Assembly (NCBI GenBank): GCA_044221905.1 | Contig: JBGAOE010000004.1 | Coordinates: 249,675 to 313,674, forward strand | Direction of reading: 5' to 3' | Source of the DNA: Bacteroidia bacterium | Lineage (GTDB): Bacteria > Bacteroidota > Bacteroidia > B-17B0 > Aurantibacillaceae | Length of the DNA stretch: 64,000 nt | In this document: positions 4,535 through 57,134 of the stretch, piece after piece | Numbering within the stretch: position 1 is the stretch's first letter | Layout: each line of letters opens with the position of its first letter | Notes under the pieces: generated by a model | Databases searched by the model: none | Told to the model about the DNA's origin: nothing | Seen by the model: the letters and a program-made list of their open reading frames with translations, nothing else | Program-made: the position numbers and the translations under genes

Positions 4535-4684
4535 CATTAAGCGAATGTCTAAAAGTGTAGCTGATGATTTAAGGTCGCGACTCCCGGCACAAGTTCGGGA
4601 TAAGTTCCGCTCGACCTGACGTCAAAGCACCATGCAAAACTTGTTTCAACATCTCTTGACACTCTGAAACGAGTTCAGAGTGAC
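4535..4684. repeat. Composite REP-like palindromic element carrying a 24-nt hairpin insert (4582-4605)
   Basis: ggtcgcgac[tcccggcacaagttcgggataagt]tccgctcgacctgac is homologous to 36393-36416. It is followed by catgcaaaacttgtttcaacatct and ctctgaaacgagttcagagtgac hairpins. Confidence 0.75.
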
Positions 4685-12303: not shown

Positions 12304-12360
12304 GATGTGTTTAAATTTTGGGCTAAGGTAATTTTAAAACTTGCTTGTTGTACTCCGTTA

Positions 12361-14916
12361 TTAATTATTATCGTCCGTTGGTGTAGTATTATCGTCCTGG
12401 GCCTCAGCCGTCGGTTCGTTCAACCCGGTTGTTTCGGGTTTTTCCGCCCCCTCTTCCGCTGCTTCCTCCTCTTCGTGGTCAACCCTTGTCACAGCGGCAA
12501 TGCTGTCGCTGTCCTGAATGTTGATGAGACGCACGCCTTGTGTGGCGCGGCCCATTACCCGCAGGTCGCTTACGTTCAAACGAATGGTGATGCCGTTTTT
12601 GGTGATGATCATCAGGTCGTTGGCATCGGTTACCGATTTAATGGCTACCAGGTTACCGGTTTTGTCGGTAATGTTAATGGTTTTTACGCCTTTGCCGCCG
12701 CGGTTGGTTACCCGGTATTCTTCAATATCAGAGCGTTTGCCATATCCTTTTTCCGAAACCACCAGCACATTGGCCTGCATGTCTTCAATGCAGATCATGC
12801 CCACCACTTCGTTATTGCCGCCTTCCTCGTCGTTCAGGTCAATGCCAATTACCCCACTGGCGTTGCGGCCCATTGGCCTCACTTTTTCTTCGGGGAAACG
12901 GCACACCTTGCCAAGTTTGGTAGCCAGCATAATCTCGTTACGCCCGTTGGTAAGCGCGGCTTCCAGAAGCACGTCCCCTTCGCGGATGGTGATGGCATTG
13001 ATGCCATTTGCGCGCGGGCGCGAATACGCATCCACCGATGTTTTCTTAATAATACCGTCTTTTGTGCAAAGAATGATGAAGTTGTTTTTAATATACTCCT
13101 CATCGTTCAGATCCTTGATATTGATAAAGGCTTTTACCTTATCATCCGGCGCAATGCTGATCAGGTTCTGTATGGCCCTGCCTTTGCTGGTTTTGTTTCC
13201 TTCAGGCACTTCATACGCGCGGATCCAATATACCTGGCCTTTTTCGGTGAACAGTAAAATGTAATTGTGTGTGGAGGCAATAAACATGTGCTCCACAAAA
13301 TCCTCGTCGCGGGTGGAGGTGCCTTTACTGCCGCGGCCACCGCGGTTTTGCGCGCGGTACTCGGCCAGGTTGGTACGTTTCATATAGCCCATGTGCGAAA
13401 TGGTGATCACCACATTCTCATCGGCAATAATGTCCTCTATTTTAAGGTCGTCGCCCGCATACACAATATCGGTGCGGCGCTCATCGCCATATTTTTCTTT
13501 GATCTCCACCAGCTCTTCGCGAATGATTTTATAGCGCAGATCTTCATTGTTCAGCACATCGTTTAAATAAGCAATGGTTCGCATCAGCTCGTCGTATTCG
13601 GCTTTCAGCTTGTCGCGCTCCAGTCCGGTAAGAGTGCGCAAACGCATGTCGAGAATGGCGCGGGCCTGTATTTCCGACAGGCTAAATTTACCCATGAGCT
13701 CATCCCTGGCCACATCGGGGCTTTCACTTTCGCGGATAATGCGGATCACTTCATCCAGGTGATCCAGCGCTATCAGCAAGCCCTGTAAAATGTGCGCGCG
13801 TTTTTCGGCCTGTGCCAGGTCGTATTTGGTGCGGCGCACAACTACTTCGTGACGGTGCTCTACAAAATGATAGATCATGTCCTTCAGGTTCAGCACCTCG
13901 GGCCGGCCTTTTACCAGCACTACGTTATTGATTGAAAATGAAGTTTGCAGCGCCGAAAACTTATACAGGTTGTTTAACACCACGTTCGAGATCGCATCGC
14001 GGCGCAGCTCATACACAATGCGCATGCCCTCGCGGTTACTTTCGTCGCGGATCTCGCTGATGCCTTCAATTTTCTTTTCATTGCACAATTCCCACTGGCG
14101 CTTAATCATGTCGGCCTTGTTGATCTGGTAAGGGATCTCGGTCACAACAATCCGCTCACGGTCGCCAACGGGTTCCACATTGGCTTTGCCGCGCATGATC
14201 ACGCGCCCGCGGCCGGTGCGAAATGCTTCTTTTACTCCCTCGTAGCCGTAAATGGTACCGCCGGTTGGAAAATCGGGCGCCTTGATGTGTTTCATCAGGC
14301 CGTCTACATCAATCTCTTTATTGTCAATGTATGCTAATATGGCATTAATGCTTTCTGTCAGATTGTGTGGCGCCATGTTGGTGGCCATGCCCACGGCAAT
14401 ACCCGATGCGCCGTTCATCAGCAGGTTGGGGATACGTGTTGGCAAAACCGTTGGCTCGCTCAGCGAGTCGTCAAAATTAGGACGGAAATCCACGGTATCC
14501 TTTTCAATATCGGCCAGCATTTCTTCGGCAATTTTGCGGAAGCGCACTTCGGTGTAACGCATGGCTGCAGGCATATCGCCGTCTATCGATCCAAAGTTCC
14601 CCTGCCCGTCTACCAGCATGTAACGCAGGCTCCACTCCTGCGCCATACGCACCATGGTGTCATATACGCTGGAATCGCCGTGCGGGTGATACTTACCCAA
14701 TACCTCCCCAACAATACGCGCTGATTTTTTATAAGGGCGGTTGTGCAGCACGCCCAGGTCGAGCATGCCGTAAAGCACGCGGCGGTGCACCGGCTTCAGT
14801 CCATCACGCACATCGGGCAGCGCCCGCGACACAATTACCGACATCGAATAATCGATGTAGGCGGTTTTCATTTCATCTTCAATGTTAATGGGGATAATTT
14901 TTTCTCCGTCTGCCAT
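12361..14916 (-). CDS. gyrA: DNA gyrase subunit A
   Basis: [24 protein letters not shown], catalytic AAMRY, GyrA-box QNRGGRG, beta-pinwheel repeats. Confidence 0.98.
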
Positions 14917-15145
14917 ATCTGTTTTTTACGTTTTAGTTCTTCGTTTTTGCGGCCGTTTTTAATGCAGTTTTGTCAGGTATTCCTTTTAACAATTGTACAT
15001 CAAAATACGGTCCTTTTTTTTCGCTTTGAACCTATGAAAGTACCGAAAAATAAGCAGATACAAGCAAAACTTATCAACAAATTTTTTGTTAAAAAAACCA
15101 CTTATGCGAACGATTATTCCGTTTATGAAAGACTATTTTTGGTTT

Positions 15146-15161
15146 TGGCATTATATATGTA
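15146..15161 (+). promoter_or_regulatory. Putative sigma54-like (-24/-12) promoter of clpC
   Basis: TGGCATTATATATGTA has GG-N10-GT spacing. It matches the htpG upstream 16-mer at 13 of 16 positions. Confidence 0.5.
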
Positions 15162-15189
15162 ATTTAACCCAACAAAAGGACATTAATTT

Positions 15190-17736
<2,547 letters not shown>

Positions 17737-17761
17737 CAGCAAGATCAAACTAAAACCATAT

Positions 17762-17799
17762 AAACCCCGGTCCCGTTAACACAGGATTCGGGGTTTTTT
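17762..17799 (+). terminator. Intrinsic terminator after clpC
   Basis: aaaccccg...cggggttt followed by T. Confidence 0.7.
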
Positions 17800-17801
17800 A
17801 A

Positions 17802-17809
17802 TACCTTTG
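17802..17809 (+). promoter_or_regulatory. Bacteroidota sigma-A -7 box upstream of clpS
   Basis: TACCTTTG matches TAnnTTTG, 19 nt before the ATG. Confidence 0.55.
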
Positions 17810-17827
17810 CATTAATATTCCAACGCC

Positions 17828-18118
17828 ATGATGAATTTAAACGAGCCGGATATTTTAGAAGACGAAGTGATTGAAACGCTTCTGAAAGAAGAAAATCCAA
17901 AAGCTTTGATTTTGTACAACGATGACGTGAACACTTTTGAATTTGTAACGGAATCGCTCATAAAAGTATGCAAACACGATGCCTTACAGGCTGAGCAATG
18001 TACCTACTTAGTGCATTATGCCGGCAAATGCGTGGTAAAAAACGGCTCGTTCCGCAAGCTTCGGCCTTTGTGCGAAGCCCTGCTGGAAAGAGGCCTCTCG
18101 GCCAGGATCGAGAATTGA
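17828..18118 (+). CDS. clpS: Clp protease adaptor ClpS
   Basis: LILYNDDVNTFEFV...VHYAGKCVV, the ClpS core. Confidence 0.92.
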   Translation: MMNLNEPDILEDEVIETLLKEENPKALILYNDDVNTFEFVTESLIKVCKHDALQAEQCTYLVHYAGKCVVKNGSFRKLRPLCEALLERGLSARIEN

Positions 18119-18175
18119 TGCGTTAGCCCGTTTTTAAATTCGCATTCCCCTACCCCAGGGATTTTATGCTTTAGA

Positions 18176-18216
18176 CAATAACATGTAACTTTATAACTTA
18201 CAACTTGTAACTTATG
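18176..18216. repeat. Degenerate 7-nt periodic array (AACTT core)
   Basis: AAC occurs at 18180, 18187, 18195, 18202 and 18209 (spacing 7, 8, 7, 7). Confidence 0.6.
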
Positions 18217-18244
18217 ACAGGTTGAATTTTTCTGAATTAAAATT

Positions 18245-19045
18245 ATGAAGAAAGTGATTATCTGCGCCCTGGCGCTCTCTGCAGTTTTTTTTAGCTGCCA
18301 TAAAAACGCGGTTACCGGCAAGCGGGCATTTACGCTTATGCCCGAAAGCGAAATGATGGCCATGAGCTTTACCGAATACGATAAATTTTTGGCCGAACAT
18401 CCTAAGCTGGGTGATAACGACGACCGGGTGATGCTGGTAAGGCGCTGCGGCATCCGCATTCAAAAAGCGGTGGAGCAGTTTTACAGGGATAAAAAGGCCA
18501 GCGACGACCTGAAAGGTTTTGCCTGGGAATTTAACGTGGTGGATGAGAATACGGTAAACGCCTGGTGCATGCCCGGCGGCAAGGTGGTGGTATACACCGG
18601 CCTTTTGCCCGTTACGCAAGACGAACAGAGCCTGGCGGTGGTGATGGGCCACGAGATTGCACACGCCATTGCCCGCCATGGCAACCAGCGCATGAGCCAG
18701 GGCCTTCTGGTCCAGTTTGGCGGTGCGGCGCTGTCGGTAGCTTTATCGCAAAAGCCGGCACTCACACAGCAGTTGTTTGCCCAGGCCTATGGGGTTACCA
18801 CCGGCTTAGGCACTTTAAAATACAGCCGCAGCCACGAAACCGAGGCCGATAAAATGGGTCTCGTGTTTGCCGCTATGGCAGGCTATAATCCCGAGGTGGC
18901 TGTTGGTTTTTGGGAACGCATGGCAGCCAGCAGTGGCGGACAAAAACCACCGGAGCTGCTGAGCACCCACCCCAGCGATGAAACGCGCATCCGCGATTTA
19001 AAGGCCTATATGCCTGAAGCGAAGAAGTACTACAAGCCGCAATAA
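18245..19045 (+). CDS. M48 family zinc metallopeptidase, lipoprotein
   Basis: Lipobox FFSC, VNAWCMPGG, HEIAH, SRSHETEAD, LSTHP. Confidence 0.92.
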   Translation: MKKVIICALALSAVFFSCHKNAVTGKRAFTLMPESEMMAMSFTEYDKFLAEHPKLGDNDDRVMLVRRCGIRIQKAVEQFYRDKKASDDLKGFAWEFNVVDENTVNAWCMPGGKVVVYTGLLPVTQDEQSLAVVMGHEIAHAIARHGNQRMSQGLLVQFGGAALSVALSQKPALTQQLFAQAYGVTTGLGTLKYSRSHETEADKMGLVFAAMAGYNPEVAVGFWERMAASSGGQKPPELLSTHPSDETRIRDLKAYMPEAKKYYKPQ

Positions 19046-19051
19046 GCATAA

Positions 19052-19176
19052 GTCATTTCGAACCGCTTATTAACAAATATTCCGGCGGAGGGAAATCTCT
19101 ATTGAAAAAAAACAGATTTCTCCCGTTGGTCGAAATGACAGCCAAATAGAGATTTCTCTGTACATCAAAATGAAAA
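19052..19176. repeat. REP-like inverted repeat pair between convergent genes
   Basis: gtcatttcga...ggaaatct / agatttctcc...tcgaaatgac (19052-19139), plus a degenerate third arm. Confidence 0.7.
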
Positions 19177-19209
19177 CAAAGTGATCCTAGAATAAAATAT
19201 TACCAAAAT

Positions 19210-19244
19210 AAAAAAAGCGGTTCCAACATGGGAACCGCTTTTTT
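19210..19244. terminator. Bidirectional intrinsic terminator
   Basis: A7-gcggttcc aacatg ggaaccgc-T6 between convergent genes. Confidence 0.85.
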
Positions 19245-19301
19245 ATTTAAGGATTGAAGTCTTTTATCTTAAATCTTTCATCTTTAGTCAAAGATGAAAG
19301 A

Positions 19302-20975
19302 TTATTTATTCAGAATCAGTCGTTTCATTGTTTTTTCCTCGCCGTTGCTGATGGTGATAAAATATACACCATTTGCATAGTTACCCAGGTCGAGGCTGTA
19401 ATTAGCCACATCTTTAAAGCTGGCAGAAGTTACAAACTGGCCAAGGTAGTTGTGCACGCTCACATCCAGTTTTCCGCCAACGGCAGAGCTGATATTAACC
19501 ACGCCGGTGGATGGATTGGGTGAAAGCAGGATGGCCCTGTCGAACATCGAATTTTTGCTGAGGCCGGTGGCTATTGAACAGTCGTTAACTGTAATCACAC
19601 GGGTGGTCGAATTCATGCCCGCTGTGTTGGTGGCCTGCAAGGTGATGGTGTACGTTGAAGGTGTTAAAAATTTAATATTCGGATTTACAGAAGTGCTGTT
19701 AGGCAAAAACTGGGTGCCGGGCATGGTTGGGCTCACCAACCATTGGTAGCTTGGCGTAGGCGTGCCCGTAGAAGCATTGGTAAGCGCAATCAGGGAATCG
19801 ATACAGCCAACGCTGACTGCAGAAAAATTGGCAGAAGGCATCACTGCCGGCACGCTGCTGCAAAGCGTAAGCGAGCTGGCGGTTAACTGGCTGCGGTAGG
19901 TGCCGTTGGTCATAGCGGTGGTCATACGCGAGCTTTGATCAGGCGTAAACATATAGCAGGCAGCATCGTCTACATAATCCATAAAATTCATAAACATGCA
20001 GCCGTTGGGCGAGCTTGAGCAGGAGTTAGGACCGGTGGCATATAAAGGATAAGACGGCGAACCGAAATTCTGACCGAATTGGCCGGAAGAGAAGCCGCCT
20101 TTTTGCGGAGGCGTGTCGTTGCAAAAATCAGAGGCGTTGCAATCACCGTTCACATTGTTGTTGCCATCGCCGCCAATGTGCCTTAAGCCCAGCCAGTGGC
20201 CAATTTCGTGTGTAGCGGTGCGGCCCTTGTTATAAGGTGGTAACACCGAGCCGGTGTTGCCAAAAGCTTTGGCCCATACCCACACCCCATCGGTGGTGCC
20301 GGTGCCGCTGCCATTGTTAATTCCGCCCAGGCCGGTGCCAATGGGAAACGTGGCATAACCCAGCAGATCTACGTTGGCTGCCTCATCGGAAACCCAGATG
20401 TTGAAATAACGGGTGGCATCCCAAATGGTGTTAGGCTTAATAGCGCTGTTAAAATTATTTTGAAACGATACGCTGGTGTTAAAAGAAGAAGAGGCCGGGT
20501 TGGTCCAGCCGTTGGTAACATAATTCACACGGTCTATTCCGGGCTCAACCAGCTGGTTTCCGAAAGGATCCATTTGAGCAAGGCAAAAGCTGATACTGCA
20601 ATTGGCCGCTCCCACCGCCGAAAAAGCTGTGGCGGCAAGATTGCTCACATTAAGGCCTGTACCGGCAAAATCGTTATTTAAAACCGCAATCTGCGAGTTA
20701 ACCTGCGCCTGCGAAATGTTTGGATAAGAGCCAACCGCCTGCCCGCCGTGGATCACGTGTACAATTACCGGAATGGTGAAATTGGTGCTTTGTACCCTGC
20801 CGCTGGCGCGGTTTTGTTTGTATTCGTCCACCTTTTGGTTAAACCAGTTGTCCCATTCAGCGGAAGGCACAGGAGTGGCACAGGTTCTGTGAGGAGGGGC
20901 GCCGGCCTGGTTTTGCGCCTGCAGCCCTGCCGATAAGAGTAAGGACGCTGCAGCCAGTTTTAAATTTAGCTTCAT
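19302..20975 (-). CDS. M43 (pappalysin/ulilysin-like) metalloprotease with a PKD-like domain and type-A CTD
   Basis: Propeptide Cys (HRTCAT), TIPVIVHVIH, HEIGHWLGLRH zinc motif, Met-turn MFMNFMDY, CTD LSPNPSTG...NGVYFI...KRLILNK. Confidence 0.92.
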   Translation of the reverse strand: MKLNLKLAAASLLLSAGLQAQNQAGAPPHRTCATPVPSAEWDNWFNQKVDEYKQNRASGRVQSTNFTIPVIVHVIHGGQAVGSYPNISQAQVNSQIAVLNNDFAGTGLNVSNLAATAFSAVGAANCSISFCLAQMDPFGNQLVEPGIDRVNYVTNGWTNPASSSFNTSVSFQNNFNSAIKPNTIWDATRYFNIWVSDEAANVDLLGYATFPIGTGLGGINNGSGTGTTDGVWVWAKAFGNTGSVLPPYNKGRTATHEIGHWLGLRHIGGDGNNNVNGDCNASDFCNDTPPQKGGFSSGQFGQNFGSPSYPLYATGPNSCSSSPNGCMFMNFMDYVDDAACYMFTPDQSSRMTTAMTNGTYRSQLTASSLTLCSSVPAVMPSANFSAVSVGCIDSLIALTNASTGTPTPSYQWLVSPTMPGTQFLPNSTSVNPNIKFLTPSTYTITLQATNTAGMNSTTRVITVNDCSIATGLSKNSMFDRAILLSPNPSTGVVNISSAVGGKLDVSVHNYLGQFVTSASFKDVANYSLDLGNYANGVYFITISNGEEKTMKRLILNK

Positions 20976-36272: not shown

Positions 36273-36326
36273 TATTATTCTATGACAGTTCTGTTACAGT
36301 TAAAAATTGAATTACTAAAATAAATT

Positions 36327-36416
36327 GACACTTCGAGCGAAACTTGTCCCGAGCTTGCCTCGGGAGTCGAGAAATGTAGCCCAATAGTCAAGGGTCTCGA
36401 CTCCGCTCGACCTGAC
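36327..36416. repeat. REP-like inverted pair with the 24-nt hairpin insert in the left arm (36342-36365)
   Basis: gacacttcgagcgaa[acttgtcccgagcttgcctcggga]gtcgagaaat ... ggtctcgactccgctcgacctgac. Confidence 0.8.
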
Positions 36417-36467
36417 AGTAGATTATCCGTCAACACGGTAAATTGCCGGGTTAATCGTTAAAATGAG

Positions 36468-36495
36468 CCCACTAACGTTTATTTGTTGTTAGGGG
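36468..36495 (-). other. Truncated attC-like junction (only 11 nt between AAC and GTT)
   Basis: Minus strand reads CCCCTAAC-aacaaataaac-GTTAGTGGG. Confidence 0.6.
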
Positions 36496-36525
36496 TTGTG
36501 CGTCACACACAGGTATTGTTCCTGT

Positions 36526-37035
36526 TTAGTGGTCCTTATATGCTTCCAAATAAATATTCTCTGTAATTTCTTTGTCGACGCGAGTCTTTTTTGCCTCTGC
36601 GATTGCTATTTTACCAATTGTAAATATATAAGCGTGTTTAAGGCCTGTCAGTTTGTTTATTTTGTATACTATTCTTATGGTATAATGTTCTAAGTCAGGC
36701 CAAGTCGTGGATGCAATTTCCAATGCGCCATTTGTCTGCAATAATTTAAAAAGTCTTTGGTAGGTTTTATTACTGACTGTGGAATAGCAAGGATTTGTAG
36801 TGTCGCCACATCGACATTGGATTTTCTTATTATTCTCCGTCACATAATAGTAGCAGTTATTTTGATTATAATAAGTCTGTACCGTAAACCAACCAGAAAT
36901 GTGCACAATTGAGTCGTACAGATTTACCGCTGGTCTTAGCTGCTCTATTCTGTATTGATGTTTTTTCGATTTGTCGACCTGTGCCATTGAGTCAAACGTC
37001 ATTAAAAAAAGGAAGAAATATAAAAAAGTCCGCAT
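36526..37035 (-). CDS. Cassette C: hypothetical secreted protein, 169 aa
   Basis: Signal peptide MRTFLYFFLFLMTFDSMAQ. No family recognised. Confidence 0.75.
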   Translation of the reverse strand: MRTFLYFFLFLMTFDSMAQVDKSKKHQYRIEQLRPAVNLYDSIVHISGWFTVQTYYNQNNCYYYVTENNKKIQCRCGDTTNPCYSTVSNKTYQRLFKLLQTNGALEIASTTWPDLEHYTIRIVYKINKLTGLKHAYIFTIGKIAIAEAKKTRVDKEITENIYLEAYKDH

Positions 37036-37068
37036 GTTTTTTGTCTTACGATATGTCGTGACGCATTA

Positions 37069-37165
37069 CCTCTAACGGAAGGCAACAGGCGTTCGCTTTT
37101 TGTAATGTCAAGTTACACATTTAGGCGCAACCCACAAAAAGTGCTCGCTTGCTTGCTGTTAGCAC
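37069..37165 (-). other. attC-like recombination site
   Basis: Minus strand GTGCTAAC-agcaagcaagcgagcactttttgt...acaaaaagcgaacgcctgttgccttcc-GTTAGAGG forms an imperfect hairpin. Confidence 0.7.
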
Positions 37166-37208
37166 TTCGTAAGGCGCACACAGTTTATTATAAATTCTCG
37201 AGTAATTT

Positions 37209-37597
37209 TCATTTATCATCTTTTTTATAACGCAAAATTCCTGCATCAGTAACGATGGCCAAGGTGTCAAGTCGAATGGAAAATTTGTTGCTACCGATGA
37301 ATGTAGAGTCACTTTTGCCTAAAGAGTTTATTTGAATACCTGTGCGGTATATGGAGTCCATAATAATTTTGTAGGAGTAAAAACCAATCCCAGCTCGTCC
37401 GCCGTTAACGAGATGTTTCATTTCACCGTTGGCTAAAAATTCAAGTTGTATTCGATCATCATCATTTTTTCTTAGTTCTTGTCCGTCTTTTATTTTACTT
37501 ACAAGTGTCCAATTGCCAACAATATTTTTTGGTCGCCTGTCTGGCAGGAGAAAACCGAAAAAAAAGTTAGAATTGTCAGTACGAAATGTTTTGTCAT
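37209..37597 (-). pseudogene. Cassette B: lipocalin-like lipoprotein gene with a 1-nt frameshift
   Basis: ATG 37597 gives MTKHFVLTILTFFSVFSC (lipobox) and stops at 37499. One extra A in the A6 run (plus-strand T 37525-37530) joins it to KNIVGNWTLVSK...; repaired length is 129 aa. Confidence 0.65.
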
Positions 37598-37618
37598 GAT
37601 TTTTTGTCCGCCCTATGA

Positions 37619-37754
37619 GTGCTAACGGTTTCAGGCTTTGCGTTCGGGCGGGTTTCGGAGCACAAAGCTTCAATTTATTACTAAAGTATATTAGAAGTAA
37701 CTAAGCTCTAAGTGTGCACATCAGCCCGCCTGACGCAAAACCCGTGTTATAAGC
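37619..37754 (-). other. attC-like recombination site
   Basis: Minus strand GCTTATAAC-acgggttttgcgtcaggcggg...cccgcccgaacgcaaagcctgaaacc-GTTAGCAC; a long stem with a single bulged base. Confidence 0.75.
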
Positions 37755-37756
37755 TG

Positions 37757-38140
37757 TTAATTCTCTCCATTAAATTCATCGATAAATAATTGATCGCCAT
37801 TAGTTGTCTGGTGCTCTAAAATGATATTGTTCTCGAGAAGCAAAGTCAGCGAACCATCATAATATTCTTCGAAATCCCTTTGAATCACCTTAGTTATTCT
37901 TTTTCCAATAACGTTGAAGTCATTTTGAACTGCCCAAGCAGATTTCTCAAAAGGAATCAAATTATCATCCCTTGTCCAGTTTGAAATTTCATGAGCACCA
38001 AATTCGTAGAGGTCCGACCCATCGAGTTCGATAACAATGTAAAAATATGATGCAGGGCCTGGGATACCTTCTTGTACGATTGAAGGCTTGGTCTCGAAAA
38101 TATTCGTAATAGTCCGTCCTACTACTTCTTCTGGATTCAT
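37757..38140 (-). CDS. Cassette A: hypothetical acidic cytoplasmic protein, 127 aa
   Basis: Clean ORF, ATG 18 nt after the GTT crossover word, stop directly before the attC-like site. Internal similarity VVGRTITNI / VIGKRITKV. Confidence 0.8.
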   Translation of the reverse strand: MNPEEVVGRTITNIFETKPSIVQEGIPGPASYFYIVIELDGSDLYEFGAHEISNWTRDDNLIPFEKSAWAVQNDFNVIGKRITKVIQRDFEEYYDGSLTLLLENNIILEHQTTNGDQLFIDEFNGEN

Positions 38141-38149
38141 TTTTTAATT

Positions 38150-38243
38150 GCTTATAACTACCCTATAAGAGCCATAAATATGCTTCAATCTTGCTAAATT
38201 TGCAAGATTGGAGTAATTATATTTGGAAAAATACAGTTAAGAT
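38150..38243 (-). other. Upstream attC-like or entry site of the array
   Basis: Minus strand ATCTTAAC...aaatat...caatcttgc aaattta gcaagattg...atattt...cttatagggta-GTTATAAGC. Confidence 0.5.
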
Positions 38244-38391
38244 AAACCGTTAAAAACAGGAAATTAGCCGTCAATATGACGGCTATGGGTCAAAATATAG
38301 CTTTTAGCCGTGCCATTTTTAACATATCTTTATACAAGCGACTTCGACATTTTGACCCTCTGCCTGCCAGTTAATTTTTAATGTAACAGCT

Positions 38392-50957: not shown

Positions 50958-53900
50958 ATGAAATTAAGGTTTAATACCTTATTGGCCATTTTATTATCCC
51001 CACTCAAAATTGTTAAAAAAGCTCTTGTTTTTTTAATGATGCTTATTTCTTGCCCGGTTTTTACCCAAAATTTGCCGGTGGAAGAGATAAAAAAAGAAGC
51101 AAATAAGCTGTTTGATGAGGAGGAATACGCCAAAGCCTATAAGCCTTACTCGCAGTTGGTGGCCAACTATCCCAAAGACCCTGAATACAATTTTAAGCTG
51201 GGTGTGTGCATGATTTATGCCGAGCCCGACAAAAAGAAATGCCTGCCCTACCTGCAGTTTGCCGCAAAAAACAAAACCGATAACATCAAAGACGTGCATT
51301 TTTACCTCGGCAAAGCCTGCCACATCAATTACCTGTTTGACGAGGCCATTAAAAACTACAGCGAATTTAAAAAAACTGCCTCCGGCGCGCGCCAAAAAAA
51401 ACTGCAGGTAGACCGCGAAATAGCGGCCTGCGACTTTGGCAAAAAGCTGCTCACCAATCTTACCGACCTGGTGGTGCTCTCCAAAAAACAGCTCAGCGAA
51501 GCCGATTATTTCAGGAGCTACGATTTAAAAGACATTGGCGGCAAGCTGCTGGCCAAACCCGATGAATTTAAAAGCGCCGCCGATAAAAAAAAGAAGGATA
51601 AATCGATTGTGTTTTTGCCCAAAACCGGCGACAGGGTGTATTACAGCAGCTATGGCGAAAATGCCGATAACGGACGCGACATTTATTACTCTACCCGCCT
51701 GCCGGGGGGCACTTACAGCAAGCCTGAAAAAGTAAACGGCATTAATACCGAATTTGACGAGGATTACCCTTTTCTGCACCCCAACGGGCAAACACTTTAC
51801 TTTGCCAGCAAAGGCCACAACAGCATGGGAGGGTACGATATTTTTAAATCCAACTACATAGAAGCTTCCAATGCGTGGAGCACGCCGGTAAATCTCGAGT
51901 TTCCAATCAACTCGCCCGACGACGATTATTTGTTTGTAACCGACTCGCTCGAAAAGCTGGCCTACTTTAGCACCGGCCGGCAAAGCCCGCCGGGCAAAAC
52001 CGATGTTTTAAAAATAAACACCGAGCGCAAGCCGATCGATATTCTTGCTATAAGAGGTTCGGTAGAAAAAGAAAATGCCGACCAAAGTGTAAAAAGCAAA
52101 ATCAGCATTAAAAATGCCGACACCAAAGATGATATTGGCATTTATTATGCTGAGGACAATGGCGAATACACCTTGGAGCTGCCAAACGGCGCCAAACTCC
52201 TGTTCACAGTTGAAACGCCGGGCTTAAACACCCAATCGCAGGAAGTGGCCCTTCCCTTCTCCACTGTGTCAAAGCCTTACAAGCAAACCATTTCCTATGC
52301 AGCCGGCATTTTAAAAATAACCAACAATTTTGACGAGTCGCCGGCTGAAAACAATTACCTGCAATACTTAAAGGTGATCGAAAAAAAGGCGAAGCTGGAG
52401 GTTAACGAAGGTCAGAATACGTTGGTAGCGCCTGATGCAACTGCTGCTGCCAAAAAGCAAAAAGATCAAACCGGCCCCCAGGTTATCGAAGATGCAAGCG
52501 CTAACACCGGCAGCGTGGCAGCCAAAGATCCCAAACAGGGACTTGACAATAAGCAGCTGGCGGATATTGCCAAGCAGGATGCCCGCGAATCAGCCGAAGA
52601 AGCCACGCGCCTGAAACAGGACTCGAACGATGCGTTTGAAGTCGGCAACCAGCAAAAAGAAGAAGCCGGCAAAAAATTGATTGCTGCCGATGAAGCCCTC
52701 AAGAATGCAGAAGGCATAAGCAATGAAGACGAGAAAAAACAGGCGCTTGAAAAAGCCGCTGTTTTAAAGCAGGAAGCCGAAAATGCCGATGCGGTAGCCA
52801 ATAAGATACTGGCTTTTGCAAAGTCGCTCGATGCCGATGCTATTGCCAAACAAAAAGAGGCCGACCTGAACGGGCAGTATGCCACCGAGCTTGAAAAAGC
52901 AATCAGCTCTAAAAACGGCAATGCACAGTCGATGGCGAAGCTGGATGAGCTGCAACAGCAGATCAACACGCTGAGTGCTCAAAAAAACGAATCGGATGAC
53001 CTGTTTAATTCCATTAAAAGCGAGATCGGAGAAAAGGAAAAACAGATTGCCGCACTCGAAAAAACCAATGGCAGCGTAAAAGCCAACCTGGATGAGATCA
53101 AGACCGAGATCACGGCTTCGGAGGAAGAGCTGGCACGAACAAAGAAAAAGAAAGACAAGGAAGCGATTATTGTAAAAACCAATGAGCTCAAAACCGAACA
53201 GGGCGATAAGGAAAACCAGATAGCTGCCAATAACGCCGAAATAAAAAAACTGAGCGATGAGCTGGCCGGCCTTAAAAACGAAATGGACCTGGCCAACCGT
53301 ATTAAAACAGAAACCATTGCCGCCAGCACTGCTCCCTCCGCTTCGGTGACCACCTCCACCCCCACTCCTGCCGCCGTAAAAGAGCAAACCGTTAGCATTG
53401 CCAAAACAACTCCAAAAGAAAACAAGGCTCCCGAAGTAAAAAACACGGCGCCGGATAACACTCCCGATTATTCGCCCTTAACTGCAGCCACGGGTGCAGA
53501 GGCCATTGCCCGGCTGGATGAGCTGACCAGCCGGCTAAACAATAATGATAACGAGCTCTTTGATTTTAATGCCTACCAGAATAACCAGGCCCAGAATTTG
53601 AAAGTGGAGGCCGACGCCGGAATAAACGATGCATCGGCCCAGGTAAAAAAACTCAGGGAAGCCATTGTAGCCTCGAAGGAAGAACTTGCGAAGGAGCCTG
53701 CAGCCAGCGGAAGCAGCACTCCTCAGCAGCTTAATAAGGAGGGCGATGAGCTGGCCACAAAAGCCCAGGGGCTAAGAACCGATGCCGACACTAAAACCGG
53801 CGATGAAAAAGACGGACTGATTACCGAAGCAAAAAACCTGGAGGCCAAAGCGGACGAAAAATACATACAGGCATCCGAAGTGACGGGCAGCGACAATACT

Positions 53901-56900
53901 GCCATTTTTGACACCAACCAGGATAATATTAAAGGGCTTCTTGCCGCCAACACATCAGAACAAGCCGATGCTGCGGAGGCCAAGCGCCTGTCGGATGAAG
54001 CCGACATTGCCTTTAAACAATCGAAAGCCATCCGCGAAGAGGCAAAATCACTGCCTAACGCCGGCGCCAAGCTTGGCAACCTGAGCAATGCCGAAGAAAT
54101 AGAATCGGGTGCCATTGCCCGGCAGCAGCAGGCTTTATCGTTGCTAAAAAAATCCAATCCGGGCTTTGCGCTTAAATCTGCCATCACTTCCAGCACTCCT
54201 GGCGCACCCCAGGTTTCGCAGGCCGACCTGGATGCAAAGCTAAAAGCCGTGAACGATGGCATTAATGAGCTGGCCAACACAAAATTAAATTCGTACCAGA
54301 AATTATACGACGCCAATAACTCAGAAATTGAAGCCGTAATGGCCAGTTTGGCCAAAAACCAGGCAGCCATTGATAATACGCCGCGCTTTAAAAGCGAATA
54401 CGTTGCAGGCACCGGTAAGCTCGAAACTGCAAAAGGTTTTAAACAAAGCGCTGATGAGGCTGCCAATATAAGCAGCAAGCTGGCCAGCCTGAACAGTGCT
54501 ATAAAAAAACAACTGGAAGCACTTAAGCAGCTGAACGAACTGAATGCTGAAATCAACAAGGCTCAGCCAACTGTTGATGTGGCTGCTGCCGGAAACACCA
54601 TTACCGAAACTCCGGCAGCTGCCAATCCTGAGCCAACAGTTGCGGCAACAACTCAGCCTGCCGTTGAAAATAAAACCGCCAATACCGTTATTGACACCGT
54701 AAAAACCACTGCAGAGGTACCTGTTGCTGCCACTACTATTGATATGGCCACCCTGGCGCAAAAAGACTCCACCGCCGGGCAGCTGGCTGGTTATTTTGAT
54801 AATGCCAAGGTAAGCCTCAAAAACCCACAGGCTAACTCTTCGCTTCAGAAATCACTTTCAGAATTAAAGTCAACCGACTCTGAAATTAATTCGCTTGAAA
54901 GCCGGATAAACAACTACCAGCCGCCGGCCACTACCGCACCCATCAGCCCCATAGAGCTCTTTAAAAAGGCCGATGAGCTGCTGGTGGAATCGGAGCAGAT
55001 CAGTTCAAAAGCCGGCACCCTAAGAGCAGAGGCCAGCAATAAATCGGGAGAAGAGCAGGACAGCCTGCTCACACAGGCCAAAGAACTGGACAGGCAGGCG
55101 CAGGATAAAAAAATAGAGGCCTCTTCGCTTTACCAGCAGGCCAACGCTTCGGATTATGCCACCAACAACAATGCCATTAATGAGCTGCTGGGCAAAGCCA
55201 AAAACGACAATCCGGACCTTGCTTCAGAATCGGACACAAAAAACAATGAGCTGATAACGCTGTACGAGCAAACAAAAAAACTGAGACAGGAAGCCGAAGC
55301 GCTTGATAATCCCGCCGCCAAACTAGGCGCCATCAGCAACGTGGAAGAAAAAGAAGCGGAGCTGATCCAGAAACAGAATCAGCTTATTAATGAGCTGAAA
55401 AAACAATACCCGGATTATGTTGTGAAACCGCTGAACTCAGAGAACAACGAAACCAGGGAAGAGCTTGTGCAAAAGAAAACCATCTTAAAAGAAAAACAAC
55501 ATGCACAGCTTACCGCTTTAACCAATGCATTCAGCCTTGAGTATGAAGCCAGCAAAAATGCGGTGCCTGCTAATTTAAGCCCTGAGCAAAAAGCCATCCG
55601 GAAAAATGCGGGAGAGCTGAACACCGAATCGAAGCGCCTGCTGATAAGCGCCGCGCAGCAAAAAGATGAAGCTGAAAAAACCAAGCTGCTGACTCTTTCT
55701 GTAAAGGCGGGCAATGCCGCGGTGGAGCAGCTCAACAAGATCATTCCTGAAAAAGGCACCCTGGCCAAAACAAATCCAAACAGCAACAATGGGGATGCCG
55801 CGCTGGATAAGATAGGCAAAGACCTGGCCAATAACACCAAAACTCCTGCAACTAAACCTACTAAAAAAACACCGGCGGTTGCCGCTGTTAAAACACCTAA
55901 AGCCACTACCCCAAAAACAAAAGGCATTGTAAAGGTGGAAGGGCTTGAGGTTACAAAAGGCAATGCTTACAACGACGCCAACCCTATTCCTATAGACGGA
56001 GCCATGGAAAACGGTCTGACATTCAGGGTACAGATCGGGGCATTTAAAACCCGCCTTCCCAACAACGCCTTTAAGGGCTTAAGCCCGCTGAATGGCGAAA
56101 CCACACCCACAGGCTATATTCGCTACACGGCCGGTAATTTTAATAAGCTTGAAAATGCCAATGCCGTGAAAAATGATTTGCGCCGCCTGGGATACAGCGA
56201 TGCATTTGTGGTGGTGTATTACAACGGCAAGCGCATTACACTGGGCGAGGCCCTGGCCATTATGGACAAAGAGGGTAAAACCATTGACCCTAACGCCCCG
56301 CAAACTGCCGGAATTACCGCCAGCGACAATGTGCCCAAAGCCGCTGTGGTGGCACCTGTTGCCGCTGCCAGCCAGGAAACCGTGGTGGTGACAAAAGAGC
56401 TGGAAGAGATCAACGGCCTGCTTTACACGGTGCAAATTGGTGTTTACACCCGGCAGGTTACAAAACGCCAGCTGCTGAATCTGAAGCCTATCTTTACCGA
56501 GAAGCTCAACAACGGCCTGTTCAGGTACACGGCCGGTATTTACAGTAATGCTGACAGGCTGATTGGAGACAAACGAAAAGTGGTGGAGCTGGGCGTAAAA
56601 GACGCGTTTGTATCGGCTTACCTGAATGGAAAAAGAATTCCTTTTACCGAAGGCAAACAAAAACAGGCCGAAGATTCCACGGTGAGAATGGAAGCCGAAA
56701 ATCCGATCGTATTTCCAGAAGCCGGTGTTGTTGAAACGCCTGCCGTGCAGGCTCCGGCCATATTACCCGCAGCTGGCAGTGCTGCAGTGCAACCATTTAA
56801 AAACAATGTAAACAGCTACCCTGCAGCTACCGAAGAAAACGGCGTAAAAACAAACGAAGAGGGCCTTAGCTTTAAAGTGCAGATTGGCGCGTACACCAAA

Positions 56901-57134
56901 CAGGTGCCAAACGATGTGGCAGCCAGGTTTATGAGCATTACCTCGTGGCCGGTTGAGAATAAGCAGATCAATGGCCTGTTTATTTACAACATTGGCAACT
57001 TTAGCGAAGCCCGCTATGCCAAAACCTTAAAAGAGGAAGCGCTTAAGCTTGGCATCAGCGATGCCTTTATAACCGTGTATAAAAACGGGGTGAAACTGTA
57101 TGGCAGCGAGGCCGCTGAAGCCCTGGCAAAATAA
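50958..57134 (+). CDS. 2058-aa periplasmic protein: TPR, PD40 beta-propeller, Ig/CRD-like domain, long coiled-coil region, three SPOR-like domains
   Basis: TPR helices, EDYPFLHPNGQTLYFASKGHNSMGGYDIF and INSPDDD (PD40), and three VQIGA/VY...YTAG...G(Y/V/I)xDAF repeats at the C-terminus. Confidence 0.85.
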   Translation: MKLRFNTLLAILLSPLKIVKKALVFLMMLISCPVFTQNLPVEEIKKEANKLFDEEEYAKAYKPYSQLVANYPKDPEYNFKLGVCMIYAEPDKKKCLPYLQFAAKNKTDNIKDVHFYLGKACHINYLFDEAIKNYSEFKKTASGARQKKLQVDREIAACDFGKKLLTNLTDLVVLSKKQLSEADYFRSYDLKDIGGKLLAKPDEFKSAADKKKKDKSIVFLPKTGDRVYYSSYGENADNGRDIYYSTRLPGGTYSKPEKVNGINTEFDEDYPFLHPNGQTLYFASKGHNSMGGYDIFKSNYIEASNAWSTPVNLEFPINSPDDDYLFVTDSLEKLAYFSTGRQSPPGKTDVLKINTERKPIDILAIRGSVEKENADQSVKSKISIKNADTKDDIGIYYAEDNGEYTLELPNGAKLLFTVETPGLNTQSQEVALPFSTVSKPYKQTISYAAGILKITNNFDESPAENNYLQYLKVIEKKAKLEVNEGQNTLVAPDATAAAKKQKDQTGPQVIEDASANTGSVAAKDPKQGLDNKQLADIAKQDARESAEEATRLKQDSNDAFEVGNQQKEEAGKKLIAADEALKNAEGISNEDEKKQALEKAAVLKQEAENADAVANKILAFAKSLDADAIAKQKEADLNGQYATELEKAISSKNGNAQSMAKLDELQQQINTLSAQKNESDDLFNSIKSEIGEKEKQIAALEKTNGSVKANLDEIKTEITASEEELARTKKKKDKEAIIVKTNELKTEQGDKENQIAANNAEIKKLSDELAGLKNEMDLANRIKTETIAASTAPSASVTTSTPTPAAVKEQTVSIAKTTPKENKAPEVKNTAPDNTPDYSPLTAATGAEAIARLDELTSRLNNNDNELFDFNAYQNNQAQNLKVEADAGINDASAQVKKLREAIVASKEELAKEPAASGSSTPQQLNKEGDELATKAQGLRTDADTKTGDEKDGLITEAKNLEAKADEKYIQASEVTGSDNTAIFDTNQDNIKGLLAANTSEQADAAEAKRLSDEADIAFKQSKAIREEAKSLPNAGAKLGNLSNAEEIESGAIARQQQALSLLKKSNPGFALKSAITSSTPGAPQVSQADLDAKLKAVNDGINELANTKLNSYQKLYDANNSEIEAVMASLAKNQAAIDNTPRFKSEYVAGTGKLETAKGFKQSADEAANISSKLASLNSAIKKQLEALKQLNELNAEINKAQPTVDVAAAGNTITETPAAANPEPTVAATTQPAVENKTANTVIDTVKTTAEVPVAATTIDMATLAQKDSTAGQLAGYFDNAKVSLKNPQANSSLQKSLSELKSTDSEINSLESRINNYQPPATTAPISPIELFKKADELLVESEQISSKAGTLRAEASNKSGEEQDSLLTQAKELDRQAQDKKIEASSLYQQANASDYATNNNAINELLGKAKNDNPDLASESDTKNNELITLYEQTKKLRQEAEALDNPAAKLGAISNVEEKEAELIQKQNQLINELKKQYPDYVVKPLNSENNETREELVQKKTILKEKQHAQLTALTNAFSLEYEASKNAVPANLSPEQKAIRKNAGELNTESKRLLISAAQQKDEAEKTKLLTLSVKAGNAAVEQLNKIIPEKGTLAKTNPNSNNGDAALDKIGKDLANNTKTPATKPTKKTPAVAAVKTPKATTPKTKGIVKVEGLEVTKGNAYNDANPIPIDGAMENGLTFRVQIGAFKTRLPNNAFKGLSPLNGETTPTGYIRYTAGNFNKLENANAVKNDLRRLGYSDAFVVVYYNGKRITLGEALAIMDKEGKTIDPNAPQTAGITASDNVPKAAVVAPVAAASQETVVVTKELEEINGLLYTVQIGVYTRQVTKRQLLNLKPIFTEKLNNGLFRYTAGIYSNADRLIGDKRKVVELGVKDAFVSAYLNGKRIPFTEGKQKQAEDSTVRMEAENPIVFPEAGVVETPAVQAPAILPAAGSAAVQPFKNNVNSYPAATEENGVKTNEEGLSFKVQIGAYTKQVPNDVAARFMSITSWPVENKQINGLFIYNIGNFSEARYAKTLKEEALKLGISDAFITVYKNGVKLYGSEAAEALAK

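Follow-up and report, generated by a model that had tools for sequence, protein, structure and literature searches.

The window, i.e. the whole stretch of 64 kb that was analysed, carries on its minus strand an AT-rich block of 1,952 bp (36411–38362; GC 0.374) made of a leader, three cassettes and a trailer, which is likely an orphan, partly decayed three-cassette array from an integron-like gene-capture system of Bacteroidota. The system is a real, non-canonical integron variant, of which no published description was found in the literature. The genome itself belongs to the Bacteroidota, and ten type IX secretion (T9SS) cargo genes were identified. The GC content of the array (0.376) lies below that of both flanks (0.53 and 0.48 for the flanking genes; 0.479 for the whole window), as the initial annotation of this DNA had proposed. 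No tyrosine recombinase was found in the 64 kb, either by tblastn, for which IntI1, XerD and the recombinases linked to arrays (described below) served as queries, or by Pfam scans of ORFs of at least 215 aa, which agrees with the annotated lack of an integrase; Rfam and tRNA scans of the window gave no matches.

Four G|TT junctions (38158, 37626, 37076 and 36476, minus strand) bound the three cassettes. Their coordinates and end words, re-checked on the minus strand, are as first annotated, and so is the spacing of 18, 29 and 41 nt between the G of GTT and the start codons (38140, 37597 and 37035). The accompanying claim of one ORF per cassette is right for cassettes A and C but not for cassette B, where the long frame is frameshifted as assembled. 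Cassette A (532 bp, 37626–38157) begins at junction J0 (38150–38158) with G|TTATAAGC, a start word shared with some of its homologues, and its terminal R'' is GCTTATAAC (37754–37746), the two ends being complementary over 9 of 9 bases. Its ORF (37757–38140) encodes a 127-aa protein with 32 homologues (47–100% identity), no Pfam family and no exact sequence on record; the structural model is confident (pLDDT 90) and all-beta, with no match in the PDB (best E = 0.23). The intact hairpin site of this cassette, attC_A (37618–37754, ~136 nt), extends from R'' to R' (GTTAGCA, 37626–37620) and is recognized by R1, the model of the site family presented below, with 130 bits (E = 4e-35).

Cassette B (550 bp, 37076–37625), the only one lying between two intact sites, starts with GTTAGCAC and ends with GTGCTAAC (37165–37158); nine contiguous bases pair, and the similarity of the ends spans ~22 nt with one indel. 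The ATG at 37597 opens a frame of merely 32 codons. A long, lipoprotein-like frame, ending at 37209, can be reached only across an A6 run (37530–37525), hence ORF B (37209–37597) is frameshifted as assembled; read through the frameshift, its protein has no Pfam family. The associated site, attC_B (37070–37165, 96 nt, from R'' GTGCTAAC to R' GTTAGAG), is of a second type that is also present after a homologue of cassette C (locus L028) and in another array (L081); model R1 does not detect it. Cassette C (600 bp, 36476–37075) starts with GTTAGAGG and ends with CCCCTAAC (36495–36488), the complementarity being 7/8, or 16/24 without gaps. It holds a 169-aa ORF (36526–37035) with a signal peptide-like start, no Pfam family and two homologues only (78–83% identity). 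Its site, attC_C (36468–36496), is a 29-nt remnant comprising R'' CCCCTAAC, 11 nt and R' GTTAGTGGG; the L028 homologue has an 81-nt interior at the place where attC_C has lost its own. Model R1 matches just the two ends of this remnant (8.7 bits) and thus detects one of the three window sites, attC_A.

The way in which cassette ends match each other argues for integron-type recombination. In a complementarity matrix of the three ends against the four starts, the own pairs share 9, 9 and 5 contiguous bases (local scores 11, 14 and 14), ahead of all nine other pairings (4–5 contiguous bases, scores 4–8). The observation that each cassette's ends match each other and not those of its neighbours is therefore borne out. 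Likewise, significant folding is confined to the circular junctions rebuilt from the cassettes, with z-scores of −3.1 to −5.6 (−4.2 and −4.4 for cassette A, −3.1 and −3.7 for cassette B), equalled by 0–1 of 200 shuffles, compared with −0.5 to −2.5 for the chromosomal, linear junctions. These features can be accommodated by the following scheme. A cassette would consist of one gene and a long imperfect hairpin site, analogous to attC and bounded by ...TAAC and GTT.... The circular cassette would open at the G|TT of its own site and join a recipient GTT, which could be that of an attI-like site next to a recombinase gene, of another attC or, perhaps, of a secondary site. Opening of the circle at G|TT would explain why the bases at a cassette start complement those preceding AAC at its own end. 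For cassette B the predicted circle junction is ...GCCTGTTGCCTTCCG|TTAGCACTCATAGGG.... Cassette A, having no site on its left, would not be expected to excise.

The surroundings of the cassettes are less typical of an integron. The leader (38159–38362) does not look like the attI of recombinase-linked platforms. It shows no similarity to attI repeats, and the left side of J0 has neither attI nor attC. Tried as a fourth attC, it gave no more than a hairpin of 9 bp and, on the opposite strand, a match that is weak and collapsed (E = 0.15). It contains, after the upstream gene, a terminator-like hairpin (38285–38265), and bases 38300–38371 recur in further contigs of the same metagenome. The TAnnTTTG box was used for the promoter search, a sigma-70 scan being uninformative for Bacteroidota; none was found on the minus strand between 36476 and 38392, leader included. 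At the other end, the trailer (36411–36475) starts with TTAGTGGG, which resembles a cassette start and is comparable to GTTAGTGGCAAGG, the cassette-start word in two other loci (L154 and L155); from this likeness, it may represent what is left of another cassette. Overall, the array is probably silent cargo, since there is a frameshift in ORF B, the interior of the third site is gone, no promoter motif lies upstream and only cassette B stands between intact sites.

It appears that a variant devoid of the whole 1,952-bp block co-occurs in the same metagenome, where a 56-nt unitig connects 38363 to 36410 at a CAGG microhomology (depth 8.9 versus 20.4 for the array-bearing path); the locus of this variant is not proven because its right side enters a multi-copy repeat. 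Its breakpoints are located 204 bp and 65 bp beyond the cassette junctions and not at G|TT. The block may thus have arrived or been lost by a route other than cassette recombination, and its insertion site is not reconstructable from a variant that breaks outside the junctions. In the neighbouring protein, identity to the closest relatives among GTDB representative genomes is no more than 62%, and these relatives retain usp-rpsP-nagK-spm482 but not the downstream side, which makes an empty-site comparison impossible there.

Could cassettes nevertheless be excised, inserted and reshuffled at this very locus at present? Both attC_A and attC_B have remained intact and their circular forms fold well, the array-less variant coexists with the array, the system is active elsewhere (see below), and attC_A has a depth of 227–291x in the metagenome versus ~21x for the genome, i.e. 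in this community sites of its type outnumber the genome ~10-fold. However, the array-less variant does not break at G|TT, attC_C has collapsed, the frame of ORF B is broken and neither attI nor attC lies to the left of J0. In addition, neither circle junctions nor an altered cassette order were seen in the Logan contigs of three runs, from which rare variants drop out. Current activity at this locus is therefore unlikely in our opinion, and a partly decayed orphan array, with two intact sites and one remnant within 1.3 kb and no recombinase in 64 kb, is the reading that we retain.

Evidence that the sites belong to a widespread family came from metagenomes. A 19-base pattern derived from attC_A has matches in more than 120 metagenome contigs among the matches listed, and the alignment of 44 sites revealed 17 consensus pairs, 7 of which display compensatory changes, each of them in as many as 10 sequences. 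The covariance modelling called for in the initial annotation thus disclosed a covarying family, R1, well beyond the window. The length of the sites (96–136 nt) and the covariation of their 17 pairs imply that the hairpin reflects real base pairing and not two protein-binding half-sites. Neither AAC nor GTT varies among 86 sites. The arrays are strictly polar: within a locus, sites never occupy both strands, and in 55 of 60 cassettes the longest ORF runs in the direction of the site. In 52 cassettes from metagenome arrays, the 6 nt before AAC were compared with the 6 nt after the previous GTT: the mean complementarity is 4.67/6, and it is perfect in 28 cassettes, against 2.73/6 for the same site's own GTT and 2.57/6 for random sites (Wilcoxon P = 2e-7). 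The cargo of these cassettes includes restriction-modification, defence-like and toxin-antitoxin genes as well as one gene of the beta-lactamase family. It may be that R1 sites score as ordinary attC and are already catalogued as CALINs.

The homologues of cassette A are instructive in this respect. The start word TTATAAGC also precedes those found in loci L016, L018 and L021, and the homologues in L019 and L020 begin with GTTTTAAGC, one base off; the L018 homologue starts with GTTATAAGC, and like those of L019 and L020 it ends with GCTTATAAC followed by the hairpin. The genomic settings are diverse: a single insert between M16 peptidase and fatty-acid desaturase genes (L018), single inserts between dapB and a cupin gene (L019 and L020), and a place within an array that has 15 sites or more (L021). 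The preservation of the ends across unrelated Bacteroidota loci demonstrates, at the sequence level, that the cassettes are real and mobile between genomes. Together with the own-end rule in the 52 other cassettes, this occurrence of the same cassette in unrelated loci upholds the initial proposal of attC-type recombination at G|TT.

The asymmetry of the sites is unusual. It is the R'-L' arm that carries the unpaired extra bases: CGAACGC has an A bulge, the spacer measures 6 nt on the R' side but 2 nt on the R'' side, and the R' arm is 5 nt longer in the family consensus; the 3 extra bases of attC_B are also on the R'-L' arm. In canonical attC sites, the extra-helical bases belong by definition to the R''-L'' arm and direct the choice of the bottom strand (PMC2727003). 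This difference suggested the possibility that crossover takes place at R'' (AA|C), the site preceding its gene. This was rejected because no site lies upstream of the first cassette that follows a recombinase gene, and the single cassettes of L018 and L019 carry theirs downstream. Use of the site in a folded, single-stranded form, like the identity of the strand that is cut, is inferred.

Tyrosine recombinase genes are linked to such arrays elsewhere, as gene order in the contigs establishes. A recombinase gene located directly upstream of an array and co-oriented with it was encountered in four loci reached from the attC side (L079, L074, L055 and L121) and in three independent platforms reached from the protein side (L149, L152 and L153–L158). 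The arrays begin 90–230 bp past the gene, which is often linked to ssb. A gene for a group II intron reverse transcriptase is found directly after an R1 site in L149; in classical integrons, the group IIC-attC intron lineage is described as targeting attC sites (PMC3001079). The linked recombinases are 28–37% identical to IntI1, with which they share an SPLD C-terminus; they keep the catalytic residues and possess an extra N-terminal domain, and a 31-aa gap replaces the IntI-specific insertion. They score 191–211 bits, in two stretches, with TIGR02249 (cut-off 265; IntI1 control 509), and their best NCBIfam model is XerA_Arch (206–225 bits). At E ≤ 1e-30 the family numbers over 7,500 proteins, with named members in Saprospiraceae, Microscillaceae, Cyclobacteriaceae and Cytophagales. 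A search for recombinases next to arrays, with attention to the IntI insertion, had been advocated in the initial annotation; such enzymes do exist, and the insertion is absent from all of them.

The first cassette of these platforms follows an attI-like site, in which repeats such as CGCATTTTGTATTGTC come after the stop codon of the recombinase (or ssb) gene and precede a GTT; in 8 of 8 cases, the word after this GTT is complementary over 9/9 bases to the R'' of the first attC. Loci L153–L160 have identical recombinase and ssb genes and differ by 3–11 mismatches in the 9,650 nt upstream, but precisely at the end of GTT they part into three alternative first cassettes, two contigs stopping at GTT. 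This demonstrates cassette turnover at the attI-like GTT among near-identical strains of one wild population. The description of the system as working or recently working is thus justified for the system, but not for the window locus. As complete platforms exist elsewhere and no recombinase was found in the 64 kb, the orphan nature of the array, proposed from the start, is also supported by the data. The likely recombinase would be encoded outside the window and would probably belong to the large Bacteroidota family resembling IntI and XerA. Adjacency plus junction logic suggest that this family catalyses the reaction, and since no member of the linked family was seen in the window, the array would be served in trans by an unlinked enzyme.

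The resemblance to classical integrons is extensive. Cassettes are made of one promoterless ORF and, after it, an imperfect hairpin that runs from ...AAC to GTT..., the crossover is at G|TT and the cassette start complements its own R''. The cargo (toxin-antitoxin, restriction-modification and defence genes) is similar, as are the attI-like site with recombinase-proximal repeats, the variation of the first cassette between strains and the existence of orphan arrays and single cassettes remote from a platform. Polar arrays with a family-specific site of ~136 nt are reminiscent of Vibrio repeats. On the other hand, the linked recombinase, unlike classical IntI, lacks the additional domain and has an extra N-terminal one, the gene encoding it points the same way as the array and is often ssb-linked, the unpaired bases are on the R'-L' arm instead of the R''-L'' arm, and the hosts are Bacteroidota. 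Treponema denticola-group integrases are, as far as is known, true IntI with the additional domain, which is absent from the array-linked recombinases here. The two do share the same orientation of recombinase gene and cassettes, a feature of the 'inverted'-integrase integrons of that group (Cury 2016). Insertion of cassettes at non-att genomic sites (attG) has been shown for classical IntI (bioRxiv 10.1101/2022.09.11.507474); a similar process would account for the single cassettes between housekeeping genes (L018 and L019) and for attI-less arrays like that of the window.

Given these resemblances, the block could be the relic of an ordinary integron, a CALIN of canonical attC cassettes moved by a standard IntI present elsewhere in the genome or community. 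The R'' and R' words (xxxTAAC and GTTRxxx), the G|TT crossover and the ORF-then-site polarity are those of classical cassettes. Published attC sites are 57–142 nt long with an extended R pairing of 9–11 nt (Bouvier 2009, PMC2727003), a length range that includes the hairpins of attC_A (135 nt) and attC_B (96 nt) but not attC_C (29 nt). Reviews also count Bacteroidota among the phyla in which integrons were detected. Nonetheless, recent literature treats the phylum as almost devoid of integrons, IntegronFinder 2.0 reporting a complete integron in Bacteroidetes for Salinibacter ruber only. Moreover, every array-adjoining recombinase is without the IntI insertion and under the TIGR02249 cut-off, no insertion-bearing IntI was found by tblastn in the first 148 of 160 loci (~1 Mb) and the extra unpaired bases are on the arm opposite to the canonical one. 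We consequently regard an ordinary relic as improbable. 'Integron-like' is retained from the initial label and plain 'integron' is not, because two defining features of classical integrons fail, namely the IntI insertion in the linked recombinase and the arm carrying the extra-helical bases.

An Xer/dif type of mobility, in which short double-stranded recombinase sites would bound the genes and the hairpins would be incidental, seems very remote. The pdif modules of Acinetobacter plasmids are Xer-dependent, and the two ends of a module are inverted repeats; the small gene modules, inverted-repeat ends and Xer-like recombinase (XerA_Arch being the best model) of the present system are indeed comparable. 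However, pdif modules have 28-bp XerC/XerD duplexes in alternating orientation, while the sites here are long covarying hairpins that all point in one direction, with a single and fixed cassette polarity. Finally, the absence of any mobile element, with terminators or REP-like repeats between ordinary genes and chance complementarity, would fit hairpins located just past stop codons and linear junctions of B and C that fold no better than shuffles, but is incompatible with the matrix, the 52-cassette statistics, the same cassette in unrelated loci and three cassettes at one GTT.

There is also a broader proposal, towards which we lean by a modest margin: Saprospiraceae, Cytophagales and relatives would possess a phylum-wide, currently active capture system, analogous to integrons but mechanistically distinct, of which the window array would be a stray product. 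In this system, an ssb-linked, IntI/XerA-like recombinase devoid of the additional domain would insert cassettes at the GTT beside its own repeats. Integrons serve as the model system for the way in which folded single-stranded DNA recombines, they are a major means by which genes are captured, and their distribution is read as patchy. If the proposal is correct, a major environmental phylum owns a very abundant cassette pool together with its own site family and linked recombinase family, which would account for integron surveys finding this phylum nearly empty; surveys demanding a classical IntI presumably overlook such platforms and their cargo, with consequences for annotation. It would also follow from ~136-nt hairpins of reversed asymmetry that folded-site recognition and strand choice must differ from those of IntI. 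It would then become possible to test how a tyrosine recombinase without the IntI insertion reads a hairpin, how the strand is chosen when the extra-helical bases are on the other arm, and whether Xer-like ancestors gave rise to integron-type capture on more than one occasion.

Four G|TTA junctions on the minus strand (38158, 37626, 37076 and 36476) and three words ending in TAAC (37754-37746, 37165-37158 and 36495-36488) were verified in the sequence and delimit three units of 532, 550 and 600 bp, namely cassettes A (38157-37626), B (37625-37076) and C (37075-36476). Complementarity was scored for every pairing of the three unit ends with the four starts. Each end matched its own start over 9, 9 and 5 contiguous bases for A, B and C, respectively (local scores 11, 14 and 14), versus a maximum of 5 bases and a score of 8 for the other pairings. 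In their chromosomal arrangement, the junctions fold weakly in the case of B and C (z = −0.5 to −1.1) and moderately in that of A (z = −2.4 and −2.5); rebuilt junctions of the circular units reach z = −3.1 to −5.6 on both strands. The pairing matrix and the folding of circular junctions confirm the three cassettes with self-complementary own ends of the initial annotation, and the block is indeed more AT-rich (GC content 0.376 versus 0.479 for the window). The ATG positions also stood. The claim of one ORF per cassette needs correction for B: its ATG opens only 32 codons and the long frame is reached only across an A6 run (37530-37525), so that ORF B is frameshifted as assembled.

Homologues of these cassettes were found in unrelated surroundings. 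Protein A has 32 homologues (47–100% identity). As a lone insert, its cassette separates M16 peptidase genes from a fatty-acid desaturase gene in L018 and dapB from a cupin gene in L019/L020; in Flavobacterium dankookense (L016/L017) it lies in a series of small ORFs on one strand, and in L021/L022 it is part of a long small-gene array including ParD/ParE. Its first word is identical or almost identical in the copies compared (GTTATAAGC in L018, GTTTTAAGC in L019 and GTTATAAGA in L021), and all three end with GCTTATAAC. Downstream of the L018 and L019 copies lie a hairpin of the window type, GTT and then unrelated sequence; the L019 hairpin differs from that of the window by compensatory changes. 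A homologue of cassette C starts with G|TTAGGGGTAATG immediately 3′ of a hairpin site in L027, and another, in L028, has a complete site of the type found in cassette B (attC_B) downstream. The third window site, attC_C, consists of its end word R″, 11 nt and the GTT word R′; by comparison with L028, it has lost its interior. Taken together, the sequence comparisons identify the window units as mobile cassettes. In L021 (8388-8523) the ends of the cassette A homologue (GTTATAAG...GCTTATAAC) are kept and the site body is that of the host array, not of the window type, so site bodies may be exchanged between cassettes. The small ORFs around the homologue differ between the two F. dankookense strains (L016:5900-6600 and L017), where it is flanked by an inverted motif (CCGATAGCG..TATATAC and TTATATAA..CGCTATCGG) without the hairpin; the motif possibly marks another type of site.

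The hairpin belongs to a large family: searching with a 19-base pattern taken from the 3′ arm of the cassette A site (attC_A) gave >120 metagenome contigs among the matches listed. The sites are ~136 nt long with strongly conserved arms (...TAAC ACGGGTTTTGCGTCAGGCGGG ... CCCGCCCGAACGCAAAGCCCGAAACC GTT...), and vary in the centre and in the 6 nt outside AAC and GTT. For 7 of the 17 pairs that RNAalifold predicted from 44 sites, up to 10 sequences per pair show compensatory changes (e.g. GGCGGG/CCCGCC, TTGGGG/CCCCAA and GCAGGG/CCCTGC). A covariance model of these sites, R1, scores attC_A at 130 bits; it detects at least 15 sites in L021, all co-oriented, and arrays of 2–7 sites in many metagenome contigs. 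An nhmmer sequence profile from the same alignment showed strict polarity: sites never occurred on both strands of one locus, and in 55 of 60 cassettes the longest ORF ran in the same direction as its site. The pairing of a cassette's two ends was assessed in 52 cassettes by comparing the 6 nt preceding AAC with the 6 nt that follow the previous GTT. The mean match was 4.67 out of 6 (perfect in 28 cassettes) versus 2.73 for the same site's own GTT and 2.57 for random sites (Wilcoxon P = 2e-7). Complementarity of a cassette's end to its own start is thus general in the family, and it is the signature that crossover at the conserved GTT leaves in integrons too, in line with the attC-type recombination at G^TT proposed initially. 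The depth of the attC_A stretch in the source metagenome is 227-291x versus ~21x for the genome, and foreign sequence takes over exactly after GTT on one side and within R″ on the other.

As initially stated, there is no integrase by the array: tblastn with IntI1, XerD and array-linked proteins, and Pfam scans of large ORFs, revealed no tyrosine recombinase in the 64-kb window, a housekeeping region (gyrA, clpB, pnp, rpsP, htpG) with ten type IX secretion (T9SS) cargo genes. These ten genes (2080-63867) carry Por_Secre_tail or CHU_C domains, one product being 1,547 aa long; a separate 2,058-aa ORF (50958-57134) is almost without recognisable domains. Elsewhere, a tyrosine recombinase gene lies directly upstream of the array and co-oriented with it in four contigs found by the site pattern (L079, L074, L055 and L121). 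The proteins share 40–60% identity with one another and 28–37% with IntI1, its SPLD C-terminus and the catalytic residues, and have an N-terminal extension of 70–170 residues. Tyrosine recombinases were found where the initial annotation suggested looking for them, beside such arrays, but the IntI-specific insertion is replaced by a 31-aa gap. Their best NCBIfam match is XerA_Arch/'integron integrase' (206–225 bits, cut-off 220); on TIGR02249 they score 191–211 bits in two stretches (cut-off 265). The family comprises >7,500 proteins at E ≤ 1e-30, from Saprospiraceae, Microscillaceae, Cyclobacteriaceae, Cytophagales and Thermoflexibacter among named organisms, and is annotated, where the protein has a name, only as 'site-specific integrase', 'tyrosine-type recombinase/integrase', 'integrase' or 'XerD'.

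The reverse search, from recombinase homologues to their contigs, led back to the sites. Downstream of its recombinase gene, L152 carries four R1 sites, all co-oriented, with cassettes (12310-19946) encoding a restriction-modification pair, an AAA_21 ATPase, a beta-lactamase-family protein (PF00144) and an SMC_N/AAA_15 protein, a cargo rich in defence-like genes like that of Vibrio superintegrons. In L149 (Saprospiraceae), a restriction-modification cassette precedes an R1 site, and two more contigs stop just past the recombinase gene. The adjacency of recombinase genes and arrays suggests that the recombinase acts on these sites. In four independent arrangements (L079, L149, L150/L151 and L153-L160), the recombinase gene has an ssb gene as its neighbour. 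Directly 3′ of an R1-type site in L149 lies a gene for a group II intron reverse transcriptase (RVT_1 and GIIM; L149:13748-15654), reminiscent of the group IIC-attC introns that classical integrons harbour. In L040 (5470-7355) and L082 (6219-8158), a tyrosine recombinase gene is paired with what is probably an IS91-family transposase gene, judging by its cysteine-rich N-terminal motif, beside or inside R1 arrays; these elements may target the hairpin sites.

Downstream of the recombinase (or ssb) stop codon there are 2–3 copies of a 14–18-nt repeat (e.g. CGCATTTTGTATTGTC), followed by a GTT 90–230 bp past the stop. In 8 out of 8 loci (L079, L074, L055, L121, L149, L153, L154 and L155), the nine bases beginning with this attI-like GTT are a perfect complement of the first site's R″. 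Eight contigs from eight samples (L153-L160) have identical recombinase, ssb gene and repeats and the same uvrB neighbourhood, with 3–11 mismatches in 9,650 nt. Their sequences agree up to ...ATTTATGTGTT and from there diverge into three alternative first cassettes (crossover GTT at ~L153:9649), encoding a 187-aa ORF, a 1,203-aa MmeI-type enzyme and a 1,050-aa Type ISP enzyme, the latter two being large restriction-modification enzymes; two contigs end exactly at the crossover GTT. This is population-level evidence for recent cassette insertion at a defined site beside the recombinase gene.

In classical attC sites, the extra-helical bases, those of the R″-L″ arm without a partner on the R′-L′ arm, direct strand choice (Bouvier et al. 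2009, PMC2727003). In R1-type sites, by contrast, it is the R′-L′ arm that is longer: its CGAACGC contains a bulged A, and its 6-nt spacer lies opposite one of 2 nt. attC_B shows the same bias. Crossover nevertheless takes place at R′, since first cassettes have no upstream site and single cassettes carry their site downstream. The array-linked recombinases lack the IntI-specific insertion, which IntI reportedly needs for its activity (Messier and Roy 2001). Arm asymmetry and the missing insertion together argue for a system that is integron-like in logic and not a member of the IntI integrons.

The window array itself is an orphan. No attC or attI repeats were found left of the start of cassette A (38158). 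A weak match to the two ends of R1 with the interior missing (38233-38257, plus strand, 8.9 bits, E = 0.15), opposite in orientation to the array, could be either a relic or a chance hit. Behind the upstream gene lies a terminator-like hairpin (38285-38265), and the Bacteroidota −7 box TAnnTTTG, present at promoters of neighbouring genes, is absent from the minus strand between 36476 and 38392. Only cassette B has intact sites on both sides; attC_C has collapsed and ORF B is the frameshifted one. A 56-nt unitig of the source metagenome (depth 8.9) joins 38363 to 36410 at a CAGG microhomology inside ACTGGCAGG/ACTGTCAGG, omitting the entire 1,952-bp block; the array-bearing path has a depth of 20.4. 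The block therefore appears polymorphic among co-occurring strains, the unitig's assignment to this locus being likely only, as its right side is a multi-copy repeat. The breakpoints of this apparent variant, however, lie 204 bp and 65 bp outside the G|TT junctions, so gain or loss of the block here is not explained by cassette recombination. The sequence following cassette C starts like a cassette (TTAGTGGG...), and the block may thus be a fragment of a longer array. The multi-copy repeat is a structured ~125-nt element (36292-36418, TCGAGCGGAGTCGAGACCC..., depth in the source metagenome 80-180x versus 24x) with a partial copy at 4575-4614, and the array-skipping variant joins directly to its first base. 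A 72-nt stretch just past the stop of the upstream gene (38300-38371) recurs with 7–11 mismatches in two other metagenome contigs with different flanks on both sides, and L008 has a 53-nt match to it.

IntegronFinder 2.0 reported a complete integron in Bacteroidetes only for Salinibacter ruber, and a 2024 preprint lists Bacteroidota among clades 'previously found without any integrons'; we found no description of such a system in the literature searched. The array as originally observed is confirmed and its integron-like interpretation supported. The finding is larger than the single array initially proposed: Bacteroidota carry an abundant, non-canonical integron-like system with recent cassette turnover, of which the window array is a decayed stray.
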